Shown one piece after another: positions 1,618 through 4,443 of a DNA stretch of 4,443 nt. Both the position numbers and the translations under genes were made by a program. The stretch is from a virus (lineage: Duplodnaviria > Heunggongvirae > Uroviricota > Caudoviricetes). Position 1 is the first letter of the stretch. The number at the start of each line of letters is the position of its first letter. Location: IMG/VR virus record IMGVR_UViG_2690316148_000014; one strand, 5' to 3'. The notes below the pieces were generated by a model, which was not told the origin of the DNA, ran no database searches, and saw nothing but the letters and a program-made list of their open reading frames with translations.

Positions 1618-1865
1618 NNNNNNNNNNNNNNNNNNNNNNNNNNNNNNNNNNNNNNNNNNNNNNNNNNNNNNNNNNNNNNNNNNNNNNNNNNNNNNNNNNN
1701 NNNNNNNNNNNNNNNNNNNNNNNNNNNNNNNNNNNNNNNNNNNNNNNNNNNNNNNNNNNNNNNNNNNNNNNNNNNNNNNNNNNNNNNNNNNNNNNNNNNN
1801 NNNNNNNNNNNNNNNNNNNNNNNNNNNNNNNNNNNNNNNNNNNNNNNNNNNNNNNNNNNNNNNNN
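1618..1865. other. Run of 248 N (gap or masked sequence); content unknown
   Basis: Directly visible. It is separated from the previous N run by a 23-nt island, ggtgataacttgacgtttgtttt. Confidence 0.95.
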
Positions 1866-2478
1866 CTTTCATAGTATCAAGTTCTTTTTTAAGCTTTTGC
1901 TTTAACTTATCCAGTTTACCGGAATAATGCTTAGTCAAATTAGCTTCAGCTAACTGAAGAATCTCTTCATCTGTTTTATCAGTCATCAGAATAAATTGAC
2001 CAGAACCCCTTAATGCTTGTCTGACATCAATTAACCGGAACCCTTCAGGGATACTTTGAAGAACTTTAGGAACGTCTTCAATCGCTGTACCAAAACCATC
2101 ATTAAAGTTTCCTTCATAATAGATAAACGGGTTTGACTTAATCTCGTAAGCAATATCATATTCTGAAGGTTTCGAGGTTTCTTCGAAGTTCTTAACAGCA
2201 TCGTAAGCGACATCAAGTCTAAGACGCTGTGATTTTAAAGCTGGGTAATATTCACGCTCAAGCTCAAATAGTGCTTCAGTTTTGCAGATATCAGGCATTT
2301 CTTGAGGCTCAGGAGACACAAAGGAAATTACCTTTGGTGACATCTTTAGCTCTTGCTCAAGCTCAATGCGCTTGTCATGCTCTTGACGCTGAATAGTATG
2401 TAGCGGATGTTCACCCTGTGGTGACCAGTCTCCGAAGCTATCAACCTTTTTACCGTTAATATATAAATCGTTTGTCAT
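1866..2478 (-). CDS. Hypothetical acidic protein, 5' end intact, 3' end lost in the N run (204 codons visible)
   Basis: ATG at 2478..2476 with GAGGAAA Shine-Dalgarno 5-8 nt upstream. The frame is open for 204 codons until it hits the Ns at 1865. The protein is charged and acidic (MTNDLYINGKKVDSFGDWSPQGEHPLH...LDKLKQKLKKELDTMK). The 381-aa track ORF spans two N runs, so its length and whether it is one gene or two cannot be known. No family recognised. Confidence 0.65.
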
Positions 2479-2502
2479 TATAATTTCCTCTAAGTGTGGT
2501 TA

Positions 2503-2580
2503 TTTCTTAATAGAGCACCTTCAACGCCAATACACTTAGAAGATGACTTAACGATTTATTAAAGATGCTCTATTAAGAAA
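2503..2580. repeat. Perfect 15-bp inverted repeat (tttcttaatagagca / tgctctattaagaaa) with a 48-bp spacer
   Basis: Arms at 2503-2517 and 2566-2580 are exact reverse complements. A 15-bp perfect inverted repeat is unlikely by chance in a window this size. It lies 25-100 nt upstream of the ATG at 2478. Confidence 0.8.
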
Positions 2581-2609
2581 AGCCCTAAACATAATCTGTG
2601 AAGGGCTTT
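2573..2609 (-). terminator. Intrinsic-terminator-like hairpin with U-tract (second of a tandem pair)
   Basis: On the minus strand: AAAGCCCT, a 15-nt loop, AGGGCTTT (8-bp stem, 2609..2579), then TCTTAAT. The loop is long for a canonical terminator and the U-tract is interrupted. Confidence 0.4.
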
Positions 2610-2671
2610 GGAGGTTTGCTTATAACGTTAACGAAGTTTCAGGAAAACTTTCTTTAAAAGCTCTGTTTAAA

Positions 2672-2706
2672 AACTCTTAAAGAAAGCCCTAACTCATGAT
2701 TAGGGC
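2672..2706 (-). terminator. Rho-independent terminator (first of a tandem pair)
   Basis: On the minus strand: GCCCTAA, loop TCATGAG, TTAGGGC (7-bp stem, 2706..2686), followed by TTTCTTTAAGAGTTTTT. No U-run follows the hairpin on the plus strand, so it is strand-specific. Confidence 0.55.
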
Positions 2707-2875: not shown

Positions 2876-2904
2876 ATTATGTCATGCTCAAGGTTGTTTG
2901 TCAA
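2876..2904 (-). promoter_or_regulatory. Sigma70-type promoter: -35 TTGACA, 17-bp spacer, extended -10 TGaCATAAT
   Basis: Minus-strand reading: TTGACA at 2904..2899, spacer aacaaccttgagcatga (17 nt), CATAAT at 2881..2876 preceded by TG. An A/T-rich stretch lies upstream. Predicted transcription start near 2869, reading toward the terminators and the gene at 2478. Confidence 0.55.
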
Positions 2905-4249: not shown

Positions 4250-4443
4250 TTAAAAATCCTCTGTAACTAAATAGGGGTCAAACTCGAAATCTGGTTGCTC
4301 GTTTTCCATTGGCTCAATATTCCCAACGGCAATATGATGTTCAACAATGCCAATTAATTTCGCGCACATCACAGCAAGCAAAGCGCAATATTTATCGCTT
4401 GGTAATTCGTAACTGGATTTGCCCCTATATTTCCAGACATCTG
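4250..4443 (-). CDS. 3' end of a hypothetical protein (5' end beyond the window)
   Basis: The minus-strand frame is open from the window edge to TAA at 4252..4250 (64 codons: ...DVWKYRGKSSYELPSDKYCALLAVMCAKLIGIVEHHIAVGNIEPMENEQPDFEFDPYLVTEDF). Its stop abuts the ATG of the ribbon-helix-helix gene. It is not in the ORF track, probably because it is edge-truncated. Confidence 0.5.
   Translation of the reverse strand, partial: DVWKYRGKSSYELPSDKYCALLAVMCAKLIGIVEHHIAVGNIEPMENEQPDFEFDPYLVTEDF

Follow-up and report, generated by a model that had tools for sequence, protein, structure and literature searches.

What is the perfect inverted repeat that lies just upstream of a start codon in this viral DNA: a pair of protein-binding sites on the double strand, or a hairpin that acts in the mRNA, and if a hairpin, what does it control? 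The window, meaning the whole stretch of 4,443 nucleotides analysed, carries all of its recognisable genes on the minus strand. Within it, positions 2503-2517 (TTTCTTAATAGAGCA) are the exact reverse complement of positions 2566-2580 (TGCTCTATTAAGAAA), with a spacer of 48 nt. No longer perfect inverted repeat with a spacer of up to 100 nt exists in the window, the runner-up measuring 10 bp, and dinucleotide-preserving shuffles of the non-masked parts of the window gave a longest repeat of only 8-14 bp, with 15 bp reached in 0 of 200. The repeat that the earlier note had described, 15 perfect base pairs around a 48-bp spacer, is therefore borne out. The distances given there were roughly right: the downstream arm ends at 2503, which is 24 nt from the start codon and 12 nt from the GAGGA core of the Shine-Dalgarno box, where 25 and 15 nt had been claimed. 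The upstream arm adjoins a terminator-like hairpin at 2579-2609, with which it has 2 nt in common. When the arms are extended inwards to 2503-2524 and 2559-2580, 22 nt each, the DNA complementarity is 91%, and both mismatches become G·U pairs in RNA of the mRNA sense. The RNA of 2615..2470 folds at -49.7 kcal/mol, with z = -7.1.

Read on the minus strand, the repeat forms a hairpin that we call S1. Its 5' arm (UUUCUUAAUAGAGCA, 2566..2580, mRNA sense) is paired with the exactly complementary 2503-2517 in the minimum-free-energy fold, and the 3' arm (UGCUCUAUUAAGAAA, 2503..2517) was recovered both by the repeat search and by the predicted fold. The inner extension of the 5' arm (2559..2565) adds seven pairs, two of them G·U, with that of the 3' arm (2518..2524), as indicated by complementarity, fold and alignment; the same columns are paired in hairpin types B and C introduced below. 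S1 of the window is accordingly a 22-bp stem enclosing 34 nt. In minimum-free-energy folds of the window and of at least 30 type-A leaders, the apical region (2525..2558) contains a small inner stem-loop with CUUCUAA as a 7-nt apical loop. Three central stem pairs, with the 5' half GCA at 2566-2568 and the 3' half UGC at 2515..2517, form a candidate RNase III cleavage centre. S1 was rejected as an intrinsic terminator, its interior being 34-48 nt long and the stem being followed by UAACCACAC, without a U-run.

To place the hairpin in a comparative frame, we gathered about 100 related loci from genomes, viral contigs and metagenomes, comprising 75 distinct leaders. These leaders fall into three sequence-divergent hairpin types at an identical position, namely type A (the window's form, 22-bp stem), type B (about 28 bp) and type C (about 25 bp), all of which lie behind a terminator-like GCCC...GGGC hairpin and end 5-25 nt before the Shine-Dalgarno box. 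S1 is far more conserved than its flanking genes: the type-A hairpin is identical at 76-78 of 78 nt in 46 loci, whose downstream proteins are 54-91% identical, apart from one shortened locus among the 46 (L100), scored at 30%. The hairpin types are shuffled relative to both the downstream protein class and the upstream genes, so that the hairpin module behaves as an independent mosaic unit. A query of 242 nt from the leader found matches in 365 of 5426 complete E. coli genomes, as a rule a single one in each; a dispersed repeat of the REP or MITE kind was dismissed, the median being one place per genome and the maximum two. In viral contigs, hairpin cores occur solely upstream of the homologous gene. 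A scan of a genome collection returned three loci only, all from Escherichia, and the element thus shows no deep phylogenetic spread. Two genomic sources hold the locus twice: E. albertii NBRC 107761 (L007, L009) has two loci with different protein classes and one hairpin type, and metagenome contig OOBX01000469.1 (L073, L075) has two copies of the island's gene about 11.5 kb apart, which suggests tandem islands.

The three types share a helix rather than a sequence. In alignment A4 of 49 distinct leaders, 95.9% of the cells in 27 stem pairs are paired, and in 13 of the 27 pairs both sides have changed with pairing kept; these compensatory changes lie between three lineages and hence represent few independent events. 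The covariation score is 0.321, as compared with 0.175 in shuffles (none of 500 reaching 0.321) and at most 0.109 with slid partners. RNAalifold found the same helix independently, with 12 compensatory pairs among 23 predicted, 4 of them beyond S1. The only pairs that never vary among the 49 leaders are one U-A pair and the central G-C, C-G and A-U pairs (alignment columns 25-27 / 84-86).

We then considered at which level, DNA or RNA, this structure is likely to act. The sense strand of types A and B folds much better than the antisense strand owing to the G·U pairs, with minimum free energies of about -34 versus -20 kcal/mol for type A and about -40 versus -29 kcal/mol for type B; for type C the comparison is mixed. 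The earlier note had also proposed that the arms could be operator half-sites for a DNA-binding protein such as the one of 92 aa encoded upstream. Perfect 15-bp dyad symmetry near a gene start is what such an operator would look like, yet several findings speak against it. Which arm type a locus carries does not depend on its 92-aa allele: one and the same arm sequence accompanies alleles that are 96% or about 58% identical, in many loci with these arms the 2.5 kb upstream contain no homologue, and one allele was found with all three arm types. Moreover, 63 bp separate the centres of the two half-sites, the stem departs from perfect symmetry through G·U pairs that are valid in sense RNA only, and the nearest promoter lies about 300 bp upstream. 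The 92-aa protein itself matched no Pfam, NCBIfam or PHROG family, which leaves its ribbon-helix-helix label unverified. Strand bias, a fixed loop orientation and arms independent of the 92-aa gene all favour an RNA element and argue against an operator, which we regard as hardly credible.

The loop orientation also bears on whether the palindrome has any function at all. Template switching at a quasi-palindrome could keep it perfect, or it could hitch-hike with the conserved recombination junction of a mosaic element; mosaicism is strong in this region, and DNA-level hairpin events have taken place next door, where the 15-nt loop of the adjacent terminator-like hairpin (T2) is exactly inverted in L058 and L065. 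In sharp contrast, the S1 interior has a single orientation in all 75 of the 75 distinct leaders, which led us to reject an invertible DNA switch and indicates that loop content matters for S1 and not for T2. Together with a helix register, length and position common to three divergent sequences, the strand bias of folding, and a conservation of the hairpin far above that of the flanking genes, this makes a lack of function very improbable. The inverted repeat is a real, selected RNA hairpin, and very probably an RNA-level cis element in translational or processing control.

S1 is the last element of a leader of about 390 nt. The leader begins at a near-consensus sigma-70 promoter (TTGACA-17-TGaCATAAT, 2904..2876, minus strand), conserved in every locus checked, and runs through a covarying 5' hairpin, a conserved structured domain, an optional terminator with a small hairpin (T1-H1), T2 and S1. 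T2 (2579..2609, minus strand; AAAGCCCU...AGGGCUUU plus a U-run) has the stem and the U-run of a terminator with a 15-nt loop above the limit of the terminator scan, and its GCCC...GGGC hairpin precedes S1 in every locus. T1 (2706..2686) fits the intrinsic terminator pattern and, with the small hairpin H1 (2686..2648), makes up a minus-strand segment (2648..2706) that is missing from many loci. The first U residues of the S1 5' arm are the T-run of the terminator-like hairpin before it. Because this last U-run starts the 5' arm, S1 can form only in transcripts that read through the terminator or terminators. The coupling to the adjacent terminator hairpin that had been surmised from the window alone thus recurs in every locus. 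On the gene's strand, no other promoter-like site was found in the leader, including inside and near S1, in types A, B and C. A candidate antisense promoter on the plus strand (2456-2484) was discarded, as it rests on bases that vary among loci.

Several further features of the leader deserve mention in their own right. H1 is a 13-bp hairpin whose 5' arm again coincides with a terminator U-run, that of T1, and T1-H1 looks like a shortened duplicate of T2-S1, with a 19-nt direct repeat at 2570-2588 / 2674-2692. The minus-strand segment 2686-2904 would give a structured RNA of about 185 nt, a length estimated from the promoter (2904..2876) and T1 (2706..2686); besides the covarying 5' hairpin it contains the conserved motif GAAAGGUGCAAUGCUUUUCG, its folding energy is -60 kcal/mol, and it ends at T1 and has no Rfam match. 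In the two loci with an inverted T2 loop, AAACATAATCTGTGA stands in place of TCACAGATTATGTTT, a small hairpin-loop inversion polymorphism, and in other loci the T2 loop has insertions of about 11 or about 30 nt, some with a Shine-Dalgarno sequence and a mini-ORF. Such mini-ORFs, running into the 5' arm, were rejected as a conserved mechanism, as they occur, with a Shine-Dalgarno sequence, in some variants only and are absent from the window. Upstream of the promoter, at 2929-2994 on the minus strand, lies a hydrophobic ORF of 21 codons (MELVIICFVLIGMIAGASIKV) whose start overlaps the stop of a 107-aa gene (TAATG); other loci have a hydrophobic counterpart of 25 aa. The window contains no tRNA or tmRNA.

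The gene that S1 precedes encodes a protein of 236 aa and occupies approximately 1768..2478 on the minus strand (ATG at 2476..2478), partly N-masked in the window. Masked runs at 1245-1260, 1340-1594 and 1618-1865 fuse reading frames, and an apparent 381-aa ORF is an artefact of this masking. In related loci the gene is followed by a 67-aa gene, a tape measure gene (start at 1315 in the window) and a Dit-like gene. The N-terminal 204 aa have 2958 relatives, the best 120 of which all come from Escherichia, Shigella or Salmonella and measure 235-237 aa. No match to the 236-aa protein was obtained in PHROGs, Pfam, NCBIfam, PADLOC or PDB sequences; its clusters are named 'hypothetical' or 'transposase' only, the latter being a PGAP label of some relatives that we rejected for want of HMM support, and its AlphaFold model is poor (pLDDT 63). 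A tblastn search of a phage database found no match for the gene, and the sole DNA match there was an IS2 end. The last 35 bases of the window (4409-4443) are this IS2 end, present in many E. coli genomes; the window therefore ends at an IS2 insertion into the island described below, and the genome count of a broad DNA search is inflated by it.

The window belongs to a phage-like island of about 11 kb, which in both of the complete E. coli genomes inspected lies in yecE (DUF72), between yecD and yecN (L001 7058-18246; L104). The island encodes a large serine recombinase, the Dit-like protein, the tape measure protein, the 67-aa and 236-aa proteins, several small ORFs, an HNH nuclease, an adenine methylase and a small serine recombinase. 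Tail genes are represented by those for the tape measure and Dit-like proteins, whereas genes for capsid, portal and terminase are missing, and the island may be either a decaying prophage or a satellite-like element. In some strains the island is peppered with IS elements, and every small gene is extremely allele-shuffled. Searches of the literature by keywords and by protein accessions found nothing on it.

What the loop of S1 might do is suggested by its complementarity to the ribosome-binding site of this gene. In the window, the segment UCUUCUAAGUGU (2543..2532, minus strand) forms 12 contiguous pairs, one of them G·U, with the Shine-Dalgarno box ACACUUAGAGGA (2497..2486; core GAGGA, 2490..2486). 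The contiguous pairing amounts to 12 pairs in type A, 12-13 in type B (CCUCUUCUAAGU : ACUUAGAAGAGG) and 9 in type C (UUCACCUCU : AGAGGUGAA); nearly all distinct leaders have 9-13 and one type-B leader has 6. In every type the core of the anti-Shine-Dalgarno segment lies within the predicted apical loop, and on alignment A4 the loop-box helix, a pseudoknot, is 91% paired. More importantly, the complementarity is kept as both partners change, from UCUUCUAAG : CUUAGA(A)G in types A and B to the type-C pair, and cross-type energies show that loops prefer the box of their own group (A/B versus C). Both complementary segments are conserved, whereas the remainder of the loop is hypervariable, as are the linker and the spacing up to the ATG; in types A and B the conservation takes in the CUUAG that flanks the box and is dispensable for ribosome binding. 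Of the ribosome-binding sites of 11 island genes, the cognate one alone shows such a contiguous match.

Shuffled loops give a measure of chance, since they already form about 7 contiguous Watson-Crick or G·U pairs with the ribosome-binding region. The type-A duplex energy of -17.3 kcal/mol was equalled by 4 of 2000 loop shuffles and the type-B energies by 1-6 of 2000, while those of type C were reached by 61-81 of 2000, a modest significance when taken alone (p about 0.03-0.04). Given the common ancestry of types A and B, there are about two independent instances. The upstream leader RNA showed no complementarity to S1 above shuffled controls. A second pairing, a perfect 10 bp between 2550-2559 and 2463-2472 (codons 3-6), is present in the window and absent from L001 and most loci, and is probably due to chance. 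Compensatory changes, the sense-strand bias in types A and B and the loop-to-box complementarity thus together uphold the earlier proposal of a 5' UTR stem-loop in translational or processing control, and S1 most likely acts on translation rather than as a protein-binding site on DNA.

Given this complementarity, we asked whether loop and box could pair within one molecule. In the minimum-free-energy structure of the intact leader, S1 is formed and the Shine-Dalgarno box stays unpaired; to pair the box in a nested structure instead takes another 10-15 kcal/mol. Once the 5' arm is left out, in contrast, the predicted folds of all three types sequester the box, with energies of -16 to -24 kcal/mol. 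A loop-box helix atop an intact S1 would be 5-12 kcal/mol more stable, if sterically possible. The linker is 5 nt in type A and 17-25 nt in type C, and by a geometric estimate the former looks unable to span a 22-bp helix whereas the latter could. A static pseudoknot thus looks sterically impossible in type A, where repression would need processing, partial opening or action in trans. With linkers of such variable length, the three types are unlikely to share a fixed pseudoknot as their mechanism. If the loop-bearing part were first detached, or acted in trans, pairing would be feasible in all types.

The stem itself offers a possible route to such detachment. In all types it has at least 22 bp with few or no bulges, beyond the two helical turns (at least 20 bp) of a regular substrate, and, counted along the regular helix, 12-16 bp separate the invariant G-C/C-G pairs from its base and 7-10 bp from its top, in a stem otherwise rich in A/U. 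The two halves of this invariant core are 51 nt apart. For comparison, at its in-vivo sites E. coli RNase III cuts both strands of a stem and leaves a 2-nt overhang, the pair of positions enclosed by the cuts is usually base-paired with a G-C or C-G among them, and the median distance between cuts is 58 nt (PMC6212723). The core and spacing of S1 are compatible with these rules, which is not proof of cleavage, and S1 is probably a substrate of RNase III.

We tentatively propose, at somewhat less than an even chance, that loop-to-box pairing damps translation and that the stem is an RNase III site by which the loop is freed. The leader of the tail-gene operon (236-aa, 67-aa, tape measure and Dit-like genes) would be transcribed from the strong constitutive promoter about 390 nt upstream, and S1, in its long untranslated part, would be made only after read-through of one or two terminator hairpins. 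The 22-28 bp stem would then display an anti-Shine-Dalgarno segment of 9-12 nt in its apical loop, and pairing of the loop with the box 5-25 nt downstream would reduce translation initiation of the 236-aa gene. That the pairing represses, rather than serving as a fail-safe, we infer, and the loss of ribosome cover may by polarity lower expression of the downstream tail genes too. In the same scheme, the long regular stem would present and stabilise the loop and probably be cut by RNase III at the invariant central G-C/C-G pairs, and the predicted cut would detach the loop-bearing stem-loop from the mRNA, such that the box could be reached whatever the linker length.

The main rival turns this logic around: S1 would be a protective 'ON' switch that locks the anti-Shine-Dalgarno segment away, so that only full-length read-through transcripts with the 5' arm are translated, while RNA without that arm, 5'-processed or spuriously initiated, silences itself by pairing segment and box. 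The folds just described fit this reading, the box being free in the intact leader and sequestered in all three types once the 5' arm is gone. It leaves unexplained, however, why the stem should be 22-28 bp long with an invariant G-C/C-G core, and with no promoter-like site on the gene's strand in or near S1, 5'-truncated RNA would have no obvious source; we judge it unlikely. A simpler account keeps the cleavage and drops the pairing, S1 being a hairpin that merely serves RNase III processing or stability and divides the leader RNA from the mRNA, with a pyrimidine-rich loop facing a purine-rich ribosome-binding site by coincidence. The long regular stem and its invariant central pairs, set against the in-vivo rules (PMC6212723), agree with it, as do the 7 or so pairs formed by shuffled loops and the modest significance of type C. 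Four observations nevertheless speak for a meaningful match: the 12-nt matches of types A and B extend past the Shine-Dalgarno core into the conserved CUUAG flank, loop and box change in concert between A/B and C, every type places the segment in its apical loop, and the complementary segments stay conserved amid a hypervariable loop and linker. An incidental match thus appears quite improbable.

Besides the proposed control in cis, S1 might be the precursor of a type-specific antisense RNA that is excised by RNase III and acts in trans, a putative role that we consider distinctly unlikely. The freed stem-loop would silence the ribosome-binding site of the tail operon on its own island and on co-resident or incoming islands of the same group (A/B versus C). 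If true, this would amount to an immunity circuit like that of c4/CI, unrelated in sequence, in a previously undescribed satellite-like island that has only tape-measure and Dit tail genes, with tandem terminators behind a constitutive promoter as a gate. If the cis-acting role is borne out, S1 would be an uncatalogued cis-regulatory RNA on a mobile island, with no Rfam family and a design in which a terminator is immediately followed by a stem of a size suited to RNase III, with an anti-Shine-Dalgarno segment displayed at its tip. One compact module would then link transcriptional read-through, RNA processing and translation. Three natural sequence variants and many natural swaps of flanking genes make the element directly testable by reporters, and the whole leader of about 390 nt, with its strong promoter, structured RNA and tandem terminators, is a probable control region of the tail genes.

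Comparison with known systems places S1 outside the catalogued families. Rfam cmscan gave no match to C4 or any other bacterial family for the window (E<=10) or for loci of all three types (E<=5); the only sub-threshold matches were eukaryotic miRNA, snoRNA and lncRNA models and Streptococcus SpF44 (21 bits versus a gathering threshold of 70). In the late leader of lambdoid phages, the PR' promoter is followed by 6S RNA, the tR' terminator and Q antitermination. The present leader, likewise upstream of structural (tail) genes, has a strong constitutive promoter and an RNA of about 185 nt ending at a terminator; this likeness concerns the leader context and not S1, and no Q-like gene or qut site was identified. 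A further parallel is the fold-back inhibition of IS10 transposase mRNA and the anti-Shine-Dalgarno sequestration in the type I toxin mRNAs hok and aapA3, in which a pyrimidine-rich segment lying upstream pairs with the Shine-Dalgarno sequence and thereby restricts translation to certain forms of the transcript. Metastable anti-Shine-Dalgarno hairpins have been described in toxin mRNA (bioRxiv 10.1101/615682). In S1, by contrast, a more stable hairpin keeps the segment in its apical loop, and the primary transcript is predicted to leave the box unpaired; the locus has no evident toxin or antisense gene.

Two other groups offer parallels to S1 itself. One comprises RNase III-processed leaders such as the lambda N leader, T7 early mRNAs and E. 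coli adhE, with which S1 shares a long hairpin in the 5' leader beside the ribosome-binding site; in adhE that site is inside the cleaved stem, whereas in S1 it lies outside the predicted substrate stem and is complementary to the loop. The other comprises c4 of P1/P7 and CI RNA of P4, in which loop and target co-vary between heteroimmune relatives, as the S1 loop and box do between A/B and C. In S1 as in these RNAs, the operon leader encodes a structured RNA whose loop is complementary to a ribosome-binding region downstream in the same transcript. P1 has c4, icd and ant1/2 in a single operon, and ant is not fully repressed without C4 RNA (PMC8198154, citing Citron and Schuster 1990). S1 differs from these RNAs in having one complementary segment where C4 has two, a much longer stem (22-28 bp), a target merely 5-25 nt downstream and no indication of release by RNase P. 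Although a member of no catalogued family, S1 would, by analogy, work like the c4/CI leader antisense RNAs and the RNase III-processed leaders.
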